DNA of 64,000 nt from an uncultured bacterium (lineage in GTDB: Bacteria; Hydrothermota; Tepidihabitantia; Tepidihabitantales; DTDR01): assembly GCA_938040315.1 (NCBI GenBank), contig CALHQW010000015.1:13729-77728 (forward strand), in the 5' to 3' direction. This document shows positions 23,556 through 63,415 of the stretch, in pieces (position 1 is the stretch's first letter; every line of letters begins with the position of its first letter). Both the position numbers and the translations under genes were made by a program. The notes under the pieces were generated by a model, which was given only the letters and a program-made list of their open reading frames with translations, was not told the origin of the DNA and ran no database searches.

Positions 23556-24072
23556 AATTGCTGGAACAGGTGGACAAGGGATTATTTTTGCGGCGATTGT
23601 TTTAGCCGAGGCAGCGGGTATTTATGAAAATAAATACGTTACCCAAATTCAATCTTACGGTCCGGAAGCACGAGGAGGCGCCAGTAAAGCGGATATAATT
23701 ATTAGTGACCAACCTATCTATTTTCCCCAAACTCAAGAGTTAGATATTTTAGTTTGTCTCAGCCAACAATCCCTTGATGAATATGTTAAAAAATTAAAAG
23801 AGAAAGGTACCCTTTTTATTGATTCTTATTATTGTAAAAACTTCAATAAGGAGAAAATAAAAACCTACGCTTTTCCTTTTTCATTGGTTGCTAAAGAGAA
23901 ATTGGGAAGGGAATTATTTGCTAACATAATTCTTTTAGGCTCCCTTGCTCGTTTTACTAAAATTGTAAGTATTGAATCATTAAAAAAGGCAATCTCCCAC
24001 CGAGTGGCTCCCCAATTTTTAGCAATTAACGAAAAAGCACTAATGTTGGGTTATGAGATCGATCAATTATAA
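23539..24072 (+). CDS. korG: 2-oxoacid:ferredoxin oxidoreductase gamma subunit
   Basis: IRIAGTGGQGII...GPEARGGAS. Confidence 0.7.
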   Translation: MRKEIRIAGTGGQGIIFAAIVLAEAAGIYENKYVTQIQSYGPEARGGASKADIIISDQPIYFPQTQELDILVCLSQQSLDEYVKKLKEKGTLFIDSYYCKNFNKEKIKTYAFPFSLVAKEKLGRELFANIILLGSLARFTKIVSIESLKKAISHRVAPQFLAINEKALMLGYEIDQL

Positions 24073-24226
24073 AGTACCAAAACTGCTTCAAGAAATAAGA
24101 TTATTGCCTTTTTGATAAAAAAATTATAAAAGAAGCAATAAAAAGAATAAAGTTATAGAATAGAACTTTTATTAATTCTCTCTTTTTTTATTTTTTAAAT
24201 TCGATAATAAGGTATAAAAAAGACCA

Positions 24227-24312
24227 TATAGGAGAAGCGTTATAAGGTTATCCCTATACCCCCAAAAAATCTTTAATTTATAAAAACCAAGAAGCCTATA
24301 CCTCTCCCCTTA
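24227..24312 (+). ncRNA. conserved intergenic element, copy A (homologous to 59248-59337); function unknown, candidate structured RNA or regulatory module
   Basis: tataggagaagcgttataaggttatccctatacccccaaaaaatctttaatttataaaaaccaagaagcctatacctctcccctta. Two GC-rich blocks shared with copy B in the same order and spacing. Confidence 0.4.
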
Positions 24313-24336
24313 TTCCTCATAAAATACTATAAGTTA

Positions 24337-24365
24337 TTGACAATAATTATGTTTTATGGTATAAT
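24337..24365 (+). promoter_or_regulatory. consensus sigma70-type promoter TTGACA-17-TATAAT upstream of the ZIP transporter
   Basis: ttgacaataattatgttttatggtataat read directly, about 120 nt upstream of the 24488 start. Confidence 0.55.
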
Positions 24366-24487
24366 AAATTTTAAAATTTATATGGCAAAGGAGTTATTTA
24401 GAACCCTGATTCATTTTAAGGTAAGAGAATGTTTTGTAACACAATAGGAGAAAATACTAATGTTTAAGTTATTAAATTGATTAAATT

Positions 24488-25228
24488 ATGTTTTTATTTA
24501 TTTTATTTTCTTCTATCATTATTAGTTTAATTTCTCTTATTGGTATATTCTTTCTATTTTTTAAAACAAACCTTTTTGAAAAGATTATTTATTATTTAGT
24601 AGCATTTGCCGGTGGTGTCCTTTTTGGCATTGTTTTTTTTCATATTTTAGAAGAAGCAACTGAACTTTTATCTACTTATTTTTTTTCTCTTTTTTTAATA
24701 ATTGGTTTTTCTATCTTTTTTATTTTAGAAAGAATTATTCGTTGGCGCCATTGCCATTTACTCTCAAAATGTGAAATCCATCCAGTTGCTTCTCTTACTC
24801 TTATTGGCGATTCTCTTCATAATTTTATTGATGGCTTAATAATTGCTGCTGGTTATTTAACTTCCTTAAAAACTGGCTTATTAATAACCTTAGGAGTAAT
24901 CTTTCATGAAATACCTCAAGAAATGGGAGATTTCGCAATTCTTATCTATGGTGGTTACAGCAAAAAGAAATCATTAATTTATAATTTTCTTACCGCCCTA
25001 ACTGCTGTTGGTGGCGCAATCGGAGGTTACTTTTTTTTAGAAAAATTTCAATCTTTTTTACCTTTCCTTTTGGCTATTGCCGGTGGTAATTTTCTTTATA
25101 TTGCTTCTTCTGATATTATTCCCGAACTGCATCGAGAAATTGAATTAAAAAAAAGCATTTATTCTTTAATTATTTTTATCTTCGGCATATTTTTAATAGC
25201 AATTTTAACAGAAATTTTTCATCCATAG
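24488..25228 (+). CDS. zupT: ZIP-family divalent metal (zinc) transporter
   Basis: HNFIDGL, HEIPQEMGDFAIL, 8 TM helices. Confidence 0.8.
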   Translation: MFLFILFSSIIISLISLIGIFFLFFKTNLFEKIIYYLVAFAGGVLFGIVFFHILEEATELLSTYFFSLFLIIGFSIFFILERIIRWRHCHLLSKCEIHPVASLTLIGDSLHNFIDGLIIAAGYLTSLKTGLLITLGVIFHEIPQEMGDFAILIYGGYSKKKSLIYNFLTALTAVGGAIGGYFFLEKFQSFLPFLLAIAGGNFLYIASSDIIPELHREIELKKSIYSLIIFIFGIFLIAILTEIFHP

Positions 25229-33250: not shown

Positions 33251-33295
33251 TCTAAAAATTGATTTTTTTAAGAAAGGAGGGTAAAATTTACTTAA

Positions 33296-54595: not shown

Positions 54596-56994
54596 AGAAA
54601 GTAAAAAATGATATTATTTATGTTAAAAAAAATGATAAAAGAAGGGAATTTTTTTCTTTTAACAAAATTTTACAAAGTATTTATAACGCTGCCTGTGAAG
54701 TAGGTCAATTTGAAAAAGAATCTTTTAAAAAATTAACTAAAGAAATTGTAAATTTATTAAAAGAAGAAAATATAAAAAATGGAATTGTTGATACCTCAAC
54801 AATCAGAGAGATAGTTAAGAGAGTTTTAAGTTATTATCATTATTTTGATGTATTAAACGCATATAACGAATTCTATAAACGAAAACTATTTTTAAAAGAA
54901 GCTACCCAAACTCATTTTTCTTTTATAAAGGAAGCAAAGGAATCAACGGATTTTGCTTTATTTGTGCAAACCTCACAAGAATTAATTGAGAAATGGGATA
55001 AAAATAAAATTGTGAAAGCTTTGATTCGAGAAACTTCTTTAGATGAAGAAAATGCTCAAGAAATTGCTTTAGAAATAGAAGAATTTATTAAAAAAGCTCA
55101 GCCTAAAATAATAACTACTAATTTAATTAGAGAATTAGTCAACGCCAAACTGATTGAAAAAGGATTATTTGAAGCAAGAAAAAAACATCAAAGATTAGGA
55201 ATTCCTTTATATGATGTAGAAAGGATTTTATTTTATCGGAACAAAGAAAATGCGAATACTCCTCATTGTCCAGAAGGAACTAATCTAACTTTAGCAGAAG
55301 CAATCAATAAACAATATGCTTTAGAAATGGTATATAGTCAAGACGTTGCTGAAGCCCACATTCGTGGTGATATTCATATTCATGATTTAGGATTCATTAA
55401 TCGACCCTATTGTTCTGGACAATCGGTAGAATATGTAAAGAAATATGGACTTTCTTTACCCGGCGCTTTATCAATTGCGAAACCTGCTAAACATCCAGAA
55501 ACTCTTTTAGCTCATATGGTGAAATTTTCTGCAGCATTACAAGGTCATTTTGCTGGTGCAATTGGTTGGGATGCGGTGAATATTTTTTTCGCTCCTTTCT
55601 TAGTAGGAATGTCTGAGAAAGATTTATATCAACTCGCTCAAATGCTTATCTTCGAATACTCTCAGCAAAATGTTGCCCGTGGTGGTCAAGCAATTTTTTC
55701 TGACTTAAATTTATATTGGGAAATCCCTAGGCATTTTGAAAATACACCTGCAATCGGACCGGGCGGCGAATACACCGGCAAGTCTTATAAAGAGTATTTA
55801 AAAGAAGCTCAAAAATTCTTAAAAGCCATTTTTTATGTTTATTTAGACGGCGATGGAAGTGGTAGACCGTTCTTTTTCCCAAAGCCTTTAGTTCACATCA
55901 CAGAAAGATTTTTTCAAACGGATGGTTATAAAGAATTTTTATTTTTGATTTCGGAAGTAGCTAGTGAAAAGGGAAATACCTATTTTGTTTTTGATCGAGG
56001 AGAAACTGCAAAAATTTCAGAATGTTGTCGGTTAGCTTTTAAATTAGATGAAAATGACTTAAAAGATGCCACTCAACCTTGGAAAATGCGTTATTGTGCT
56101 CTCCAAAATGTTACCTTAAATTTACCAAGAATAGCCTATCTTGCTAATCATAATGACGAGATACTTTTTAATAAAATAAAAGAATTCTTTGAATTTGCGA
56201 TCCGTGCTCATCTTCAAAAAAAGAAATTTTTAGAAAGTCTATTAAGATTGAAAGATGAGGGTCCTTTAGCTTTATTAGCAATGGAAAGAGACGGTGAACC
56301 TTATTTACGAATGCATCGAGTTACTTATCTTATTGGAATTTTAGGATTAAATGAAATGGTTCAATATCATTTGGGAAAAGAATTATCTGAGGACGATGAA
56401 GCTTTCAAGTTTGGATTAAAAGTAATTGCTTATCTTAAATTTCTATGTGATAAATATTCAAAAATTTTTAATATGCGTTTTGTTTTAGAACAAACACCAG
56501 CAGAAAGTTGCGCCTATCGTCTTGCTAAATTAGATATGGAATATTATCCGAATCAAACAAAAATGGTTGTTAAAGGCAGTATTACTAAAGATAGTGTTTA
56601 TTATACTAATTCCACTTATTTAAATATTAGTTTACCAATTCCTCCTTTTGAAAGAGTTTATAAAGAAGGTAAATTCCACGATTTGATTGAAGCCGGTGCT
56701 TTAACACATATTTGGTTAGCAGATGCTAAACCACCAAAAGAAAGTATTGCTAATTTTGTAACTAAAACTTTCTACCATACAAGAAATGCCCAAATTGCTT
56801 TTTCTCCAGAATTTACTACCTGTAATATCTGTCTAAAGATCAGCCGGGGTTTACGACATATCTGTCCTTATTGCCAATCAAAAAATGTTGACCATATAAC
56901 AAGAGTGACCGGTTATTTTTCTCGAGTTTCGGCTTGGAATAAAGGTAAAAAACAAGAGTTAAAAGATCGCTATAAAGGAATGGAAATTATTTAA
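54592..56994 (+). CDS. nrdD: anaerobic ribonucleoside-triphosphate reductase (class III, glycyl radical)
   Basis: N-terminal ATP-cone. C-terminal Zn ribbon CNICL...CPYCQS, then glycyl-radical loop RVTGYFSRV. ATGA overlap with nrdR. Confidence 0.85.
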   Translation: MKKVKNDIIYVKKNDKRREFFSFNKILQSIYNAACEVGQFEKESFKKLTKEIVNLLKEENIKNGIVDTSTIREIVKRVLSYYHYFDVLNAYNEFYKRKLFLKEATQTHFSFIKEAKESTDFALFVQTSQELIEKWDKNKIVKALIRETSLDEENAQEIALEIEEFIKKAQPKIITTNLIRELVNAKLIEKGLFEARKKHQRLGIPLYDVERILFYRNKENANTPHCPEGTNLTLAEAINKQYALEMVYSQDVAEAHIRGDIHIHDLGFINRPYCSGQSVEYVKKYGLSLPGALSIAKPAKHPETLLAHMVKFSAALQGHFAGAIGWDAVNIFFAPFLVGMSEKDLYQLAQMLIFEYSQQNVARGGQAIFSDLNLYWEIPRHFENTPAIGPGGEYTGKSYKEYLKEAQKFLKAIFYVYLDGDGSGRPFFFPKPLVHITERFFQTDGYKEFLFLISEVASEKGNTYFVFDRGETAKISECCRLAFKLDENDLKDATQPWKMRYCALQNVTLNLPRIAYLANHNDEILFNKIKEFFEFAIRAHLQKKKFLESLLRLKDEGPLALLAMERDGEPYLRMHRVTYLIGILGLNEMVQYHLGKELSEDDEAFKFGLKVIAYLKFLCDKYSKIFNMRFVLEQTPAESCAYRLAKLDMEYYPNQTKMVVKGSITKDSVYYTNSTYLNISLPIPPFERVYKEGKFHDLIEAGALTHIWLADAKPPKESIANFVTKTFYHTRNAQIAFSPEFTTCNICLKISRGLRHICPYCQSKNVDHITRVTGYFSRVSAWNKGKKQELKDRYKGMEII

Positions 56995-59083
56995 ATAATG
57001 AATAACGTAAAATAAAACCTAAAAAAACAATCGAAATCATTGACATTAATTTAATTAAAATATTAAGCGAAGGACCAGCGGCGTCCTTAAAAGGATCGCC
57101 AACAGTATCGCCCACTACTGCTGATTTATGAGCTTGCGAACCTTTACCCCCAAAATTCCCCTTTTCAATATATTTCTTTGCATTATCCCAAGAGGCACCG
57201 GCATTCGCCATCATTACGGCACACACAAACCCAGCAGTTAATGCACCTACTAAAAGGCCACAAACTCCTTCTACTCCTAAAAAAATACCGATAATAATTG
57301 GCACAATGATCGCTAATAAAGCTGGTAAAATCATCTCCTTTTGAGCTGCTTTTGTACAAATAGCAACTGCTTTTCCATAATCAGGCTTTGCTTTTCCTTC
57401 TAATAAACCCACTATTTCTCTAAATTGTCTCCTTACTTCTTCCACAATCTTTTGAGCTGCTCTACCCACTGCTTTCATAATCATAGAAGTAAAAGCAAAA
57501 GGAAGCATTGCACCAATAAATATTCCAACTATCAATCGAGGATTTAAAAGAAATAAATCCAATATTTTCTTACCATCACTTACAATTCTCACTTCATCCC
57601 GATAAGAAGCGATTAATGCTAAAGCAGTTAATGCTGCTGAACCAATAGCAAATCCTTTACCGGTTGCGGCAGTAGTATTTCCCAACGCATCTAATGCATC
57701 AGTTCTTTCTCTCACATAAGAGGGCTGATTAGACATCTCAGCATTTCCTCCAGCGTTATCTGCTACCGGACCATAAGCATCGCTGGCTAAAGTTATTCCT
57801 AAGGTAGAAAGCATACTAACTGCTGAAAGTCCAATTCCATAAAGCCCTAAAGAAAAATTATAAAAACCCCTACTCAAATAAAAACTACCGATTATTCCGC
57901 AAGCGATAATAATTACAATTGGTAAAGTAGATAACATTCCAACCGAAATACCTTCAATAATCACTGTGGCTGATGAAGTAGTAGCAGAGGATGCTAAACT
58001 TCTTGTGAAAGTATAAGCATCCGAAGTAAAAACTTCAGTAAAAAAACCAATCCCCACTCCTACTAATAAACCAATTAAAATTGCCCAATAGAGATATAAA
58101 TAATTATTGCCCAGAACTAATTTTACTAGAAAATAAGAAAATAAAGCTACTAAAAAAGTAGTCAAATAAATTCCTCTTCGCAAAGCAGCAAGTAAAACTT
58201 TTTGACTTGCTTTTTCTTCGGCTCTAACAACAAAATAACCAATAATTGAAGAAATGGTCCCAATACCTGCGATTACTAAGGGTAGCAGCACTCCATTTTC
58301 TTTTAATCCTGCAGACACTGAAAGTGCCATTGTTGCAACAATTGAACCTACGTAAGATTCATACAAATCAGCTCCCATACCAGCGATATCGCCTACGTTA
58401 TCACCCACATTATCGGCAATAACTGCCGGATTTCTTGGATCGTCTTCGGGAATTCCTACTTCTACCTTACCAACCAAATCAGCACCAACATCAGCTGCTT
58501 TAGTATAAATTCCTCCGCCCACTCTTGCAAATAATGCTTGCGATGAAGCACCGATACCAAATCCTAACATTGTAGAAGTAATCTTTTCCATTCGGGTAGC
58601 TACTTCTAACGATTGATAAAACTTAGAAAGAATAAAATACCAAATTGCTAAATCTAACAGAGCTAACCCCACTACTATTAAACCCATTACCATTCCAGCA
58701 GAAAAAGCAATTCTTAACCCGGAATTTAAAGATCTTTTACAAGCATTCGTCGTTCTTGCTGAAGAACGAACTCCGATAGACATTCCAATGAATCCAGATA
58801 AACCTGAGAAAAAACCACCGGTAATAAAAGCAAAAGGAACAAATATTGGTAACATTTTATTTAAAGCCAAATAAAGCAAAATGAAGAAAAGAAGTAAGAA
58901 ATAAAGACCAACAACCTGATATTGTCTTTTGAGATAAGCAGTTGCACCTTCTCTAACTGCTTCCGCAATTTTGCGCATTTCAGGTTCACCCTCACTTTCC
59001 TTAAAAATCTTAAAAATTAAAAAAATTGTAAATAAAATTGCGATAATTGAACTTAGGGGAGCAAAATAATACCAAACGTTCAT
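56987..59083 (-). CDS. hppA: membrane-integral H+/Na+-translocating pyrophosphatase
   Basis: GGGIYTKAADVGADLVGK, DNVGDNVGD, about 16 TM helices. 3' end overlaps the nrdD stop convergently. Confidence 0.85.
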   Translation of the reverse strand: MNVWYYFAPLSSIIAILFTIFLIFKIFKESEGEPEMRKIAEAVREGATAYLKRQYQVVGLYFLLLFFILLYLALNKMLPIFVPFAFITGGFFSGLSGFIGMSIGVRSSARTTNACKRSLNSGLRIAFSAGMVMGLIVVGLALLDLAIWYFILSKFYQSLEVATRMEKITSTMLGFGIGASSQALFARVGGGIYTKAADVGADLVGKVEVGIPEDDPRNPAVIADNVGDNVGDIAGMGADLYESYVGSIVATMALSVSAGLKENGVLLPLVIAGIGTISSIIGYFVVRAEEKASQKVLLAALRRGIYLTTFLVALFSYFLVKLVLGNNYLYLYWAILIGLLVGVGIGFFTEVFTSDAYTFTRSLASSATTSSATVIIEGISVGMLSTLPIVIIIACGIIGSFYLSRGFYNFSLGLYGIGLSAVSMLSTLGITLASDAYGPVADNAGGNAEMSNQPSYVRERTDALDALGNTTAATGKGFAIGSAALTALALIASYRDEVRIVSDGKKILDLFLLNPRLIVGIFIGAMLPFAFTSMIMKAVGRAAQKIVEEVRRQFREIVGLLEGKAKPDYGKAVAICTKAAQKEMILPALLAIIVPIIIGIFLGVEGVCGLLVGALTAGFVCAVMMANAGASWDNAKKYIEKGNFGGKGSQAHKSAVVGDTVGDPFKDAAGPSLNILIKLMSMISIVFLGFILRYSLFK

Positions 59084-59247
59084 AGTTTTTTATTATAATA
59101 AATTTTATTGAATTTTGCAAATAAATTTTTATAAATATTTTTACTTTATTACTTATTTTAAATTCTAGAAATTTGAAGAAGATTAAAGATACTTATTTCT
59201 CTTGATGATTCTTTTCTTTATAGTGAGAGAAAATAATTAAGAAACTG

Positions 59248-59337
59248 TATAGGAGACCGTTATAGGATTACCCCCCCCTATGACTAAAAATTTCCTTGAT
59301 TTATAAGAATTTATACTCATATACCCCTCCCCCTAGC
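59248..59337 (+). ncRNA. conserved intergenic element, copy B (homologous to 24227-24312)
   Basis: tataggagaccgttataggattaccccccccctatgactaaaaatttccttgatttataagaatttatactcatatacccctccccctagc. Confidence 0.4.
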
Positions 59338-59563
59338 AATTTTATTTTTTCTATTTTTAATTTTTAAAGTATCAAGGCCCTTCCAACGGTTTTAATTCCA
59401 CCAACTTTAAAAGGAGAAAAATTAGAGATTAAAATGGAAATATTAATCAAGATAGTAATTTGGATTTAATTTCTATCAGCGACCATAATTCTCCTTATAG
59501 GCACACCGATCAGTTGAAATAAGGATTTGGTTTGGCAATAGAAGAGAAAATTGGCAGGTTTAT

Positions 59564-59809
59564 ATGAAAAGTGATTCCAGCTATGATAGTATTGCTTACG
59601 ATGATGTGAATAATGATGGTATTATAGATTTAGGTTTTATTACCCCCCCCCAAGGTGGAATTGAAAATGGAATTTTTAATGATGAAAAAGATAGTTGGAA
59701 AAATTTTTTAAGCAATTTTACCACCTACTTGTTCTTACCAAAGGATATAACTTTTTTGATATGGATTTTGATCGCTTTATTGATGTTACCCAAGGAAAAG
59801 GTGTTTTAA
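59564..59809 (+). CDS. small hypothetical protein with a DxNxDGxxD calcium-binding-type loop and a C-terminal TM helix
   Basis: AYDDVNNDGIIDLGF (FG-GAP/EF-hand-like loop). C-terminal FLIWILIALLMLP. Possibly a gene remnant. Confidence 0.3.
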   Translation: MKSDSSYDSIAYDDVNNDGIIDLGFITPPQGGIENGIFNDEKDSWKNFLSNFTTYLFLPKDITFLIWILIALLMLPKEKVF

Positions 59810-59927
59810 AAATTTATTTAGGTAATGATAGGCGATTGACAAGATACGATAACAATTAAATAAGATTAAAAAACTTAAAAAGTAGTTAAATATTGATTTT
59901 TAAATAATTTATTTTTAAAATTATTTA

Positions 59928-61376
59928 ATGTATTATGAAGATTTTTTAAATATTTTAGGTAATTCTTTACAATTTGGTTTTATTTATTTTAATAAAGAGG
60001 GAATAATAAAATTTGTGAATAACCAATTTCTTTCTCTCTCTCAGTTATCAGAGGAAAATGTAATAAATAAAAATTGGTCAGAAATAATTGTTGAAGAAGA
60101 TAAAAGATGGGTAGAAGAGTATTTTCGAGAAAATCATAATCAAAATTTTTCTCTCGATTTTCGTATTAAAACAAATTATCTACCTATTCGCTGTTTCTTT
60201 TCACCCGTATTAAAAGAAAAAGAATTGTTAGGCTATGTGCTCACTTTTTTAAGTTTAGAAAAAGAGAAAGAATTAGAAAAAGAAGTGGCAATTTCAACAA
60301 ATATTTATCACGAAATTATGGAAAATGCTATTGATGGGATCTGTATATTAAAAGAAAAAAAAATTGTTCTTGCTAACCGTCGGTTAGAAGAATTAACTGG
60401 TTATTCAGAGGAAGAACTAAAAAAAATAAATTTTTTAGAATTAATTAGTTCTCAAGATAAAGACAAAATAATTTCAATAATTAATAAACCAGAAAATATT
60501 TTTTTACCTCTTCATTTTGGAGTAAAAATCATCCATAAAAATAAATTTGAAGTTGATACCGAATTGAGAATTGTTCCGGTTACAAAAAATGGTATTGATT
60601 CTTTAATTTTATTTTTCCGTGATATTACTCATTTAAAGGAATTAGAAAAATTAAAAACTGATTACTTTGCTATGGTTTCCCACGATTTAAGAACTCCTTT
60701 AACAACCATTAAAGAAGCTGTGACAATTATTAAAGAAATGACAAAAGATAAATTACCGAAAGAAGGGGAAAGATTTTTTAATATTATTTTAGAAGAGATA
60801 ATGCGCCTTTTTCATTTAATCGATAATTTAATTGAAGTTTCTCGTTTAGAAACTGGAAAAATAAGATTAAATTTTCAACTTATTGATATTCAACAGTTAA
60901 TTAACAAAATAATAGAACGTTTTAATATTCTTCTTCAAAAAAAGAATATTAAAATTGAAAAAAAATATCCTGCCTACCAAATAAAAGTAGAAGTTGACTT
61001 TGACCGTTTCTCTTCAGTAATTAGTAATCTTTTAGATAATGCTATCAAATATTCGCCAGAAAATGATAAAATAACATTTTTATTGCAAAGAATTGAACCC
61101 AATTCATCAATTTTAAAGGAAAAAAAGGTAAACTCTAATCTCTCTTATTTACTTATTGGAATTAATAATCGAGGACCAATTATTCCAAAAGAATATCAAG
61201 AAAAAATTTTTGAAAAATTTGAAAAGATTGAATTTAAACCAGGAGTTAAAGGAATTGGCTTAGGGTTAACAATTGTTAAAAATATTATCAAATTGCATAA
61301 AGGAGAAACCTGGGTAGAAAGTAATGAGGAAAAAGGAACAACTTTTTATATTTTGATACCATTAAATCAAAAATAA
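59928..61376 (+). CDS. cytoplasmic PAS-domain sensor histidine kinase
   Basis: Two PAS-like segments. HisKA AMVSHDLRTPLTTI. HATPase N-box/G-boxes (DNAIKYS, GIGLGLTIVKNIIKLHKG). Confidence 0.8.
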   Translation: MYYEDFLNILGNSLQFGFIYFNKEGIIKFVNNQFLSLSQLSEENVINKNWSEIIVEEDKRWVEEYFRENHNQNFSLDFRIKTNYLPIRCFFSPVLKEKELLGYVLTFLSLEKEKELEKEVAISTNIYHEIMENAIDGICILKEKKIVLANRRLEELTGYSEEELKKINFLELISSQDKDKIISIINKPENIFLPLHFGVKIIHKNKFEVDTELRIVPVTKNGIDSLILFFRDITHLKELEKLKTDYFAMVSHDLRTPLTTIKEAVTIIKEMTKDKLPKEGERFFNIILEEIMRLFHLIDNLIEVSRLETGKIRLNFQLIDIQQLINKIIERFNILLQKKNIKIEKKYPAYQIKVEVDFDRFSSVISNLLDNAIKYSPENDKITFLLQRIEPNSSILKEKKVNSNLSYLLIGINNRGPIIPKEYQEKIFEKFEKIEFKPGVKGIGLGLTIVKNIIKLHKGETWVESNEEKGTTFYILIPLNQK

Positions 61377-61785: not shown

Positions 61786-62089
61786 TTTTTTGTTTTATTT
61801 TTTTTGTTTTGATTTACTCTTTTTCTCTTTTTATTCGATCTTTTATTTTCAATGCTTTTTCTATTTCTATATGAAAAAAGGTGAACTTAAGCAAAAATAA
61901 AATTTCTCTATCAAATTAAAAAAGCAACAGTAAAAAAGAGAGTCGGAATAAAAATTTGGACGGAAATAAAAATACAAAGAAGATATGATTTTTGGAATAT
62001 GAAAAGTAAGAAAAGAGAAAGAAGTAACTAAAGGAATTGTTGAAAGAAAAAAAGGATTTATTACAATTATCAAATAAAAAGGAGTTAGT

Positions 62090-62836
62090 ATGTTCAACTT
62101 CAAAGAGAAAAAAATAATTATTACGGGAGCAGGCCAAGGAATTGGTAAAGCCATTGCTAAAAAATTTGCTGAATTTGAAGCTCTTATTGCGGTTTGTGAT
62201 ATTAATGAAGAAACTGCCCGTTTAACCGCTAAAGAATTAGAAATCATTGGAGGTAAAAGTCTTTCCTATAAAGTGGATGTAAGTAATTACCAAGAAGTGA
62301 AAGAGATTGTCAAAAAAATTGCCCAAGATTTCTCAGGTATAGACATTCTTATCAATAATGCTGGAATTGTTCGAGATAAACTCTTGATAAAGATGGAAGA
62401 GGAAGATTTCCAAAAGGTAATTGATGTCAATTTAAAAGGCACTTTTAACTTTACAAAGGCAGTATTACCATATCTTTTAGAGAAACGTTGGGGCAGGATA
62501 GTAAATATTGCTTCAGTAATTGGTGAAATGGGAAATATTGGTCAAGCTAATTATGCTGCAGCTAAAGCTGGGATTATTGGGTTTACTAAAAGTGTTGCTA
62601 AAGAAGTGGCTAGTAAAAATATTACAGTAAATGCTATTGCTCCTGGGTTTATTGAAACACCGATGACCGAAAATTTAAAACAAGATATTAAAGAGAAGTA
62701 TTTGTCATTAATTCCTTTGAAAAGATTTGGTAAACCTGAAGAGGTCGCTTATGTTTGTTTATTTTTGTGCAGCGAAATGGCAAGTTATATCACTGGCCAA
62801 TTAATCAGAGTTGATGGTGGACTTTTAATGGGGTAA
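62090..62836 (+). CDS. fabG: 3-oxoacyl-[acyl-carrier-protein] reductase (classical SDR)
   Basis: ITGAGQGIGKAIA, NNAG, YAAAKAG (YxxxK). RBS aaaggagttagtATG. Confidence 0.75.
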   Translation: MFNFKEKKIIITGAGQGIGKAIAKKFAEFEALIAVCDINEETARLTAKELEIIGGKSLSYKVDVSNYQEVKEIVKKIAQDFSGIDILINNAGIVRDKLLIKMEEEDFQKVIDVNLKGTFNFTKAVLPYLLEKRWGRIVNIASVIGEMGNIGQANYAAAKAGIIGFTKSVAKEVASKNITVNAIAPGFIETPMTENLKQDIKEKYLSLIPLKRFGKPEEVAYVCLFLCSEMASYITGQLIRVDGGLLMG

Positions 62837-62848
62837 AGTTTTAATAAA

Positions 62849-63415
62849 TTAAGTAGTAGCCACTGCCTTTTTGCCTGGTTTTAATTTCACTATTTCTCCT
62901 TTATACCTTATTCCTTTTCCTTTATATTTATCCGGTGGTTTAATCTTTCTAATATTAGCAGCGACTTGCCCAACAAGATACTTATCAATTCCTTTAATAA
63001 CAATTTCTGTTAAAGGTGTTTTAGGATCATCGGGATTAGGAGCCTGTCGAACATCTACTTCAATACCTTTTGGTACCATAAAATCTACTGGATGAGAAAA
63101 ACCAATAAAAAGTTGAATACCTTCCTTTGTTTTCTGCACTCGGTAGCCCTGACCTCTTACTTCTAATATCTTTTCAAATCCTTTGGTAACCCCGATTATC
63201 ATATTATTTATCAAAGCCCACATTAGACCACGAAATTTTTTTGCCTTGGGGAATTTCTCTTTCACCATAATCTGGTGATTATCTAAAATCACATCCACTT
63301 GTGGATGAATTTTCATATTTAATTGTCCTAAAGGACCTAAAACGAATATTTCATCATTTTTTAATTCTATTTTTACATTTGTTGGTATTATTATTGGTCG
63401 TTTACCAATCGGCAT
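62849..63415 (-). CDS. rplF: 50S ribosomal protein L6
   Basis: MPIGKRPIIIP, GVTKGFEKILEVRGQGYRV, IGFSHPVD, KYKGKGIRYKGEIVKLK. Collinear with E. coli L6. Confidence 0.8.
   Translation of the reverse strand: MPIGKRPIIIPTNVKIELKNDEIFVLGPLGQLNMKIHPQVDVILDNHQIMVKEKFPKAKKFRGLMWALINNMIIGVTKGFEKILEVRGQGYRVQKTKEGIQLFIGFSHPVDFMVPKGIEVDVRQAPNPDDPKTPLTEIVIKGIDKYLVGQVAANIRKIKPPDKYKGKGIRYKGEIVKLKPGKKAVATT

Follow-up and report, generated by a model that had tools for sequence, protein, structure and literature searches.

We report that a 64,000-nt stretch of a WOR-3 genome (hereafter the window) holds two look-alike segments of about 90 nt, copies A and B, and that each lies in DNA that is inserted relative to the orthologous site in related genomes. 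The similarity between the two is real. In the interpretation that we favor, with about even confidence, A and B are paralogous relics of a small, non-coding, MITE-like insertion element and not a conserved RNA or regulatory site. The repeat comprises:

24227..24312, + strand: core of repeat copy A, 86 nt, TATAGGAGAAGCGTTATAAGGTTATCCC...CCTATACCTCTCCCCTTA
59248..59335, + strand: core of repeat copy B, 88 nt, TATAGGAGACCGTTATAGGATTACCCCCCCC...CATATACCCCTCCCCCTA

The preliminary description of this DNA had placed two blocks in the same order and at the same spacing on the + strand of both loci, and we found them there. Its coordinates for copy A (24227-24312) were exact, while copy B ends at 59335 (...CTCCCCCTA), two bases short of the proposed 59337. 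The estimate of about 70% identity over about 90 nt also holds, with 64 of 93 columns identical (69%) in a gapped global alignment. Plain BLASTN finds the match between A and B only marginal (E=0.14), so we retested it with a log-odds matrix derived from the base composition of the window (A 36.5%, T 35.0%, C 14.6%, G 13.9%). Local alignment of the two intergenic regions then had a top score of 99.2, which none of 1000 dinucleotide-preserving shuffles of both regions attained (41.3 ± 5.3, maximum 77.9). When copy A was scanned against both strands of the whole window, copy B scored 96.6 and the runner-up site 53.8. Because the observed score exceeds all shuffles and all other sites in the window, the similarity survives composition correction, and the earlier judgment that chance was an unlikely explanation stands. 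Both copies are rich in C on the + strand (24-27% C, 10% G), with 35-38% GC as against about 29% for the window. Runs of C are indeed rare in this low-GC DNA, as had been remarked: the window has nine runs of C5 or longer (3.6 expected), and three of the nine fall within the two copies. No ORF spans copy A or copy B, and past the repeat core the similarity between the two insertions extends for only about 13 nt, on the left side.

Copy A lies between the genes of a 2-oxoacid oxidoreductase (POR) and a metal transporter (ZIP), in the following arrangement:

End at 24072: left neighbors, alpha, beta and gamma subunits of a pyruvate/2-oxoacid:ferredoxin oxidoreductase
24031..24070, + strand: left copy of the duplicated target, formed by the 3' end of POR-gamma
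24071..24447, + strand: lineage-specific insertion of about 377 nt, holding copy A, a promoter and a 21-codon small ORF
24337..24365, + strand: consensus sigma-70 promoter, TTGACA-17-TGgTATAAT, 12/12 positions, extended -10
24448..24489, + strand: right, degenerate copy of the duplicated target, running into the ZIP start codon (24488)
Start at 24488: right neighbor, ZIP metal transporter

In six related loci (L034-L038 and L049), the stop of POR-gamma overlaps the start of the next gene by 4 nt (ATGA) with no spacer, the next gene being identified as ZIP only where it was called; the spacer between POR-gamma and ZIP in the window measures 415 nt. The last 40 nt before the insertion (24031-24070) recur behind it (24448-24489), with about 31 of 42 columns matching, and 15 of 2000 shuffles reach an equal score. 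Both target copies align to a single ancestral junction in L034 and L038, and only partly so in L037. Since the target recurs and both of its copies align to one ancestral junction, we interpret the spacer as an insertion of about 377 nt accompanied by a target duplication of about 40 nt that left both genes intact. The duplication brackets the 377-nt insert and not the 86-nt repeat. Near the ends of the insert there is also a weak inverted repeat that matches at 10 of 16 positions (GTACCAAAAC... at 24074-24089 and ...GTTTTGTAAC at 24424-24439). We did not judge it significant: both arms are missing in the sister genome described below, and the pairing may be a chance product of AT-rich DNA.

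The promoter is situated inside the insertion, 25 nt downstream of copy A; locus B lacks an equivalent. The sister genome retains it at 94% conservation, with the last base of the -35 element changed from A to G (TTGACG, contig L033). Because the locus A insert carries this consensus promoter, ZIP has probably been transcribed on its own since the insertion. Overlapping the -35 element is the box TGACAATAATTATGT (24338-24352), which agrees at 11 of 14 positions with TGATAATNATTATCA, which we take to be the Fur-family 7-1-7 consensus. The box is conserved in the sister contig L033 except for the same A-to-G change at the last -35 base, and it could be a candidate Zur/Fur operator for the metal transporter. 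Downstream, a 21-codon ORF (MAKELFRTLIHFKVRECFVTQ, 24382-24447) starts about 10 nt past the predicted transcription start and ends exactly at the duplicated target. Its N-terminal half is kept in the sister genome (MVKRLFRTPIDFEI...), and it could encode a leader peptide or be the stump of the promoter's former gene.

Copy B occupies a second, unrelated site, at the 5' end of a decayed gene for an FG-GAP protein:

56987-59083, - strand (divergent): left neighbor, H+/Na+-pyrophosphatase
59205..59859, + strand: remains of the FG-GAP gene (pseudogene)
59222..59345, + strand: lineage-specific insertion of about 125 nt (boundaries ± 8 nt), holding copy B, within the FG-GAP signal-peptide codons
From 59928: right neighbors, PAS histidine kinase and response regulator

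Proteins from metagenome-assembled genomes of candidate division WOR-3 match the pyrophosphatase at 85-91% identity, which assigns the window to a low-GC (29%) WOR-3 bacterium. Four related genomes (L001, L003/L004, L005 and L006) carry an intact FG-GAP gene of 545-549 aa located 57 nt from the pyrophosphatase gene, and a fifth related contig (L002), which stops about 100 nt into the FG-GAP gene, has the same junction. Global alignments to L001, L002 and L003 each contain one large gap, from 59216-59223 to 59345-59353, and this single gap in all three identifies a ~125-nt insertion, with copy B, within the signal-peptide codons. The gene has since collapsed: translation from the remnant ATG at 59205 halts after 11 codons, tblastn recovers pieces in three frames that cover only residues 14-105 and 247-330 of 549, and the pseudogene has internal deletions of about 450 and 600 nt along with several frameshifts. 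Copy B had been described as intergenic and upstream of + strand genes, as copy A is, but it sits at the 5' end of this pseudogene and the nearest intact + strand gene begins about 590 nt downstream, at 59928. A possible target duplication at locus B is T-rich, ambiguous and 12-17 nt long. An 11-nt inverted repeat around copy B was dismissed as chance, its right arm being ancestral signal-peptide sequence. The pseudogene also contains the longest C run of the window, a C9 homopolymer at 59643-59651. Past the response regulator (61786-63415), gene order departs from that of the relatives, which have a Peptidase_M6 gene there; the window has instead a short-chain dehydrogenase (62090-62836, + strand) and ribosomal protein L6 (62849-63415, - strand), and this segment may be a rearrangement breakpoint.

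At both loci, then, relatives with 72-91% protein identity have an empty orthologous site. The closest relative (Logan assembly SRR23854657), with a ZIP protein of 90% identity, shares the locus A insertion and is occupied by an orthologous copy, A'. This copy is split across two contigs: L050 (4249-4286) ends in ...TATAGGAGACCGTTATAGGGTTACCCCTATACCCTAAA and L033 (1-49) begins with AAAACTCCTTAATTTATAAGCACCAACAAGTATATACCCCCTCCCCCTA..., with a 3-nt overlap, and we obtained the A' sequence by joining the end of L050 to the start of L033. That the break falls mid-element suggests a sequence, either the element itself or its C and A runs, that occurs repeatedly in the sister genome or is difficult to assemble there. 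Pairwise identity is 80% between A and A', 77% between A' and B and 69% between A and B. A' and B are identical over 19 nt at the left end, and over the 17 nt of the right end their sole difference is one extra C in A', whereas the ~12 nt that precede the right end are unrelated; the paralogues are therefore best conserved at their two ends. The private changes of copy A are mostly C to T (TTAC to TTAT, CCCC to CCTC and CCCTA to CCTTA). Near-identity of the A' and B ends, together with these private changes, indicates that the ancestral copies were more alike than the present ones. Copy A is decaying toward AT, its ends being the best-kept part.

The rate of this decay can be set against other classes of sites compared between the window and the sister genome. 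Identity is 73% at fourfold-degenerate sites (n=583), 82% at third positions of conserved codons and 79-86% in alignable flanking spacer, and it is 84% for the ungapped comparison of A with A'. Because the element is comparable to these site classes, its substitution rate is near neutral, and the repeat copies drift at a roughly neutral rate. Indels are fewer in the element than in its flank, with 83 of 86 element positions aligned as against 81 of 154 in the left flank. This scarcity, which could reflect weak constraint, is the sole hint of constraint.

The preliminary description had offered three candidates for the repeat: a small structured RNA, a shared transcription-factor region and a degenerate miniature repeat element. 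One hairpin, TATAGG(G)...CC(C)TATA, is common to A, A' and B:

24239..24259, no strand assigned: imperfect hairpin or palindrome in copy A, GTTATAAGG-TTAT-CCCTATAC
59259..59284, no strand assigned: hairpin or palindrome in copy B, GTTATAGG-ATTACCCCCC-CCTATGAC, an 8-bp stem that includes a single T.G pair when read on the + strand

Its counterpart in A' has a perfect 7-bp stem, TATAGGG/CCCTATA. In copy A the stem contains an A.C mismatch that becomes G.U only on the - strand, and in copy B a U.G pair that becomes C.A on the - strand; as the mismatches of A and B favor opposite strands, the variation supports neither. Across the whole window at the gathering score, the only Rfam match was a tRNA elsewhere, none being on the element, and no match at E≤10 overlapped either copy when both loci were searched. 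A tRNA/tmRNA scan of the window returned only tRNA-Arg at 33295. Relative to dinucleotide shuffles, the + strand had fold z-scores of 0.0 and -1.8, and the - strand had -1.4 and -0.5. For A, A' and B, the RNAalifold consensus of the + strand (-4.4 kcal/mol) has 9 pairs, none with a double change, and that of the - strand (-12.8 kcal/mol) has 26 pairs with 2 double changes; the covariation terms are -0.11 and +0.57 kcal/mol, respectively, three sequences giving little power. The covariation check proposed at the outset thus yielded nothing meaningful in the A/A'/B consensus. We found no terminator-like site at locus A or locus B, and copies A and B share no promoter. A structured RNA family is unsupported rather than excluded by these data, three sequences having little statistical power.

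A small RNA gene of about 90-110 nt that spread on inserted DNA would take the form either of C-rich, anti-Shine-Dalgarno-like single strands on the + strand (CCCCC, CUCCCC) or of a G-rich three-helix fold on the - strand. The conservation of C-rich tracts in a genome of 29% GC speaks for it, as do the hairpin present in all three sequences, a small central hairpin (CTTAATTTATAAG) with one C-G to T-A double change, the 26-pair consensus fold of the - strand and the low number of indels in the element relative to its flanks. We nonetheless consider such a gene distinctly unlikely, given the empty Rfam results, the near-zero covariation, the unremarkable fold z-scores, the hairpin mismatches that are tolerated only on the - strand in copy A and only on the + strand in copy B, the missing terminators and common promoter, a substitution rate near neutral and the confinement of the element to one narrow lineage in our searches. 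A cis-regulatory module, in which four hexamers of the TATAGG/CCTATA type form an operator array upstream of ZIP and of the pyrophosphatase or histidine-kinase operon, strikes us as very improbable. The order of the recurring TATAGG-like hexamers is indeed the same in all of A, A' and B, and copy A ends 25 nt upstream of the ZIP -35 element. The geometry differs between loci, however: copy A lies on the same strand as its promoter at 25 nt, whereas copy B is about 130 nt from a divergent - strand promoter with no + strand promoter near it, an arrangement that also counts against the proposed transcription-factor region. That divergent promoter is present in relatives without the element, relatives express the same genes without it, copy B is inside a dead gene, and the genes of the two loci are functionally unlinked.

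The degenerate miniature repeat is the only one of the three candidates that fits, with insertions that are absent in relatives, conserved ends and near-neutral drift. At each of two unrelated loci the site is filled in the window and empty in relatives, and this makes a decaying mobile repeat the most likely origin of the copies. The disrupted FG-GAP gene, the target duplication and the conserved ends with a divergent interior lead to the same insertion-element reading, as do the assembly break, the narrow phylogenetic range and the near-neutral decay. Against it stands the count of two copies in a 64-kb window, which makes this a candidate family only. There is also no arm of 6 nt or more between the ends that could serve as a terminal inverted repeat, the inverted similarity being limited to GGAG(A)/(T)CTCC plus a TA pair at the termini. 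The long duplication around the larger locus A insert, the ambiguous one at locus B, the failure to find a transposase among 40 ORFs and the scarcity of indels weigh in the same direction. It is unlikely, in our estimate, that a ~90-nt segment was copied just once from one locus to the other, or to both from a lost third site, by illegitimate recombination or by a repair event that also made the insertions, with no mobile family involved. Such a one-off templated copy would accord with a total of just two copies across the window and with their absence from about 100 kb of related loci, with the lack of clear terminal inverted repeats and short target duplications, and with insertions that differ in size (377 versus ~125 nt) and in their other content. 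It sits poorly with two independent insertions that share one segment whose identity is best at its ends, and with a sister assembly that breaks inside the element, which suggests more copies there; templated filler insertions of this size are also unusual in bacteria. Least probable among the readings considered is that the locus A insert is an intact promoter-delivering cassette of a previously undescribed kind, with its ~40-nt duplications, its Fur/Zur-like box and the repeat as a recognition or recombination module, copy B being a stripped-down derivative. If it were true, the cassette would have split two overlapping genes without killing either, and set a metal-regulated promoter before the downstream gene.

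The preliminary description had called for a search for more copies: it yielded one orthologue, A', and nothing besides A, B and A' in the sequences covered. The refuting conditions named in that description had a mixed outcome: significance held under composition correction, and neither covariation nor copies other than this orthologue were found. An nhmmer profile of A, A' and B detected only copies A and B within the 64-kb window, and no additional copy in about 100 kb of related WOR-3 loci. A three-part pattern that matches all three copies (TAGGAGAN{1,2}CGTTATAN{45,75}CTCCCC) gave 8 matches in GTDB representative genomes (596 Gb) and 9 in JGI metagenome contigs, all of them chance occurrences in unrelated sequence from Nostoc, Streptomyces, Bacteroidia or high-GC contigs. 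In IMG/VR, the left-end 16-mer had 18 matches, none with the remainder of the element, and a pattern for the middle plus the right end had 17 chance matches, including an unrelated GGGGAGAGGG hairpin in L062. When the locus A insert was compared with phages and plasmids by BLASTN, the only matches were AT-rich chance segments outside the element. The element sequence is therefore new: it had no match in Rfam or among phages and plasmids, and the GTDB, JGI and IMG/VR pattern scans added none. No transposase, recombinase, RAYT or TnpA was found among 40 ORFs of the window scanned against Pfam, where all the identified ones are housekeeping genes, in agreement with the earlier remark that transposase context is absent. 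A DnaA box, an integron attC site, a dif site, a tRNA fragment and a CRISPR repeat were rejected on sequence.

If the copies are relics of an insertion element, an element of about 90-125 nt would have arrived in recent ancestors of this WOR-3 lineage or been active in them. At locus A, the presence/absence pattern indicates that a copy landed in the 4-nt overlap of POR-gamma and ZIP, where duplication of about 40 nt of target would have kept both genes intact. At locus B, the same kind of pattern indicates that a copy interrupted the FG-GAP gene within its signal-peptide codons, after which the gene would have decayed. A non-coding element would need a transposase or recombinase supplied in trans, and such an enzyme would be expected to recognize the conserved ends together with the TATAGG/CCTATA motifs. 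Conserved ends around a diverged interior, as seen in the aligned copies, are the pattern that recognition ends would be expected to leave. The copies now drift near the neutral rate, and the repeat itself is probably without present function.

The phenomenon is an ordinary one, a small dispersed repeat that marks recent insertions, and the effects of the insertions on genes are the more interesting biology. At locus A, the overlap of POR-gamma and ZIP was separated, uncoupling ZIP from the POR operon and giving it a consensus promoter of its own; at locus B, the insertion probably triggered the loss of a gene for a secreted FG-GAP protein. In WOR-3, an uncultivated phylum that has been little studied, the element is useful for marking recent genome change, and it accounts for assembly breaks in related metagenome bins. 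If the full genome holds more copies, it would provide a first handle on mobile-element activity in the lineage.

Several known systems offer points of comparison. Under the strict definition of MITEs, which we took from Delihas 2011 (PMC3184786) with Correia/NEMIS, RUP and bcr1 as examples, the element falls short of a MITE. It resembles them in being shorter than 200 nt, without an ORF, intergenic or at the 5' end of a gene, near a promoter and able to disrupt a gene, as well as in having orthologous sites that are occupied or empty in close relatives and ends that are kept better than the interior. It differs in that its terminal inverted repeats are 5 bp at most, a short target-site duplication of constant length is not evident, the stem-loop is not significantly stable at the RNA level, two copies have been seen and no partner transposase is known. 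With REP/BIME sequences and with IS200/IS605 derivatives, which are hairpin-ended, it shares an imperfect hairpin near one end, a lack of terminal inverted repeats and a strand-asymmetric composition. REPs, however, are GC-rich palindromes of 20-40 nt that occur in tens to hundreds of copies and are associated with RAYT, as compared with about 90 nt, 35-38% GC and two copies here, and unlike either group the element has one weak hairpin and none at its second end, is accompanied by no RAYT or TnpA gene and shows no conserved tetranucleotide at its target. IS1634 and IS1549 generate long direct repeats of variable length, 8-514 bp (PMC2266710), which recalls the unusually long ~40-nt target duplication that flanks the locus A insert and the shorter possible one at locus B. 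Those are autonomous insertion sequences of 1.5-2 kb with a DDE transposase, in contrast to the present insertions, in which neither a transposase nor matching ends were found, and the link may best be treated as a lead from the literature. The element also departs from putative mobile promoters in that the shared 86 nt do not include the promoter, which locus B lacks; as with these systems, however, inserted DNA has set a new consensus promoter before ZIP (Matus-Garcia et al. 2012, PMC3488235), a gene that in relatives is co-transcribed with the operon upstream.
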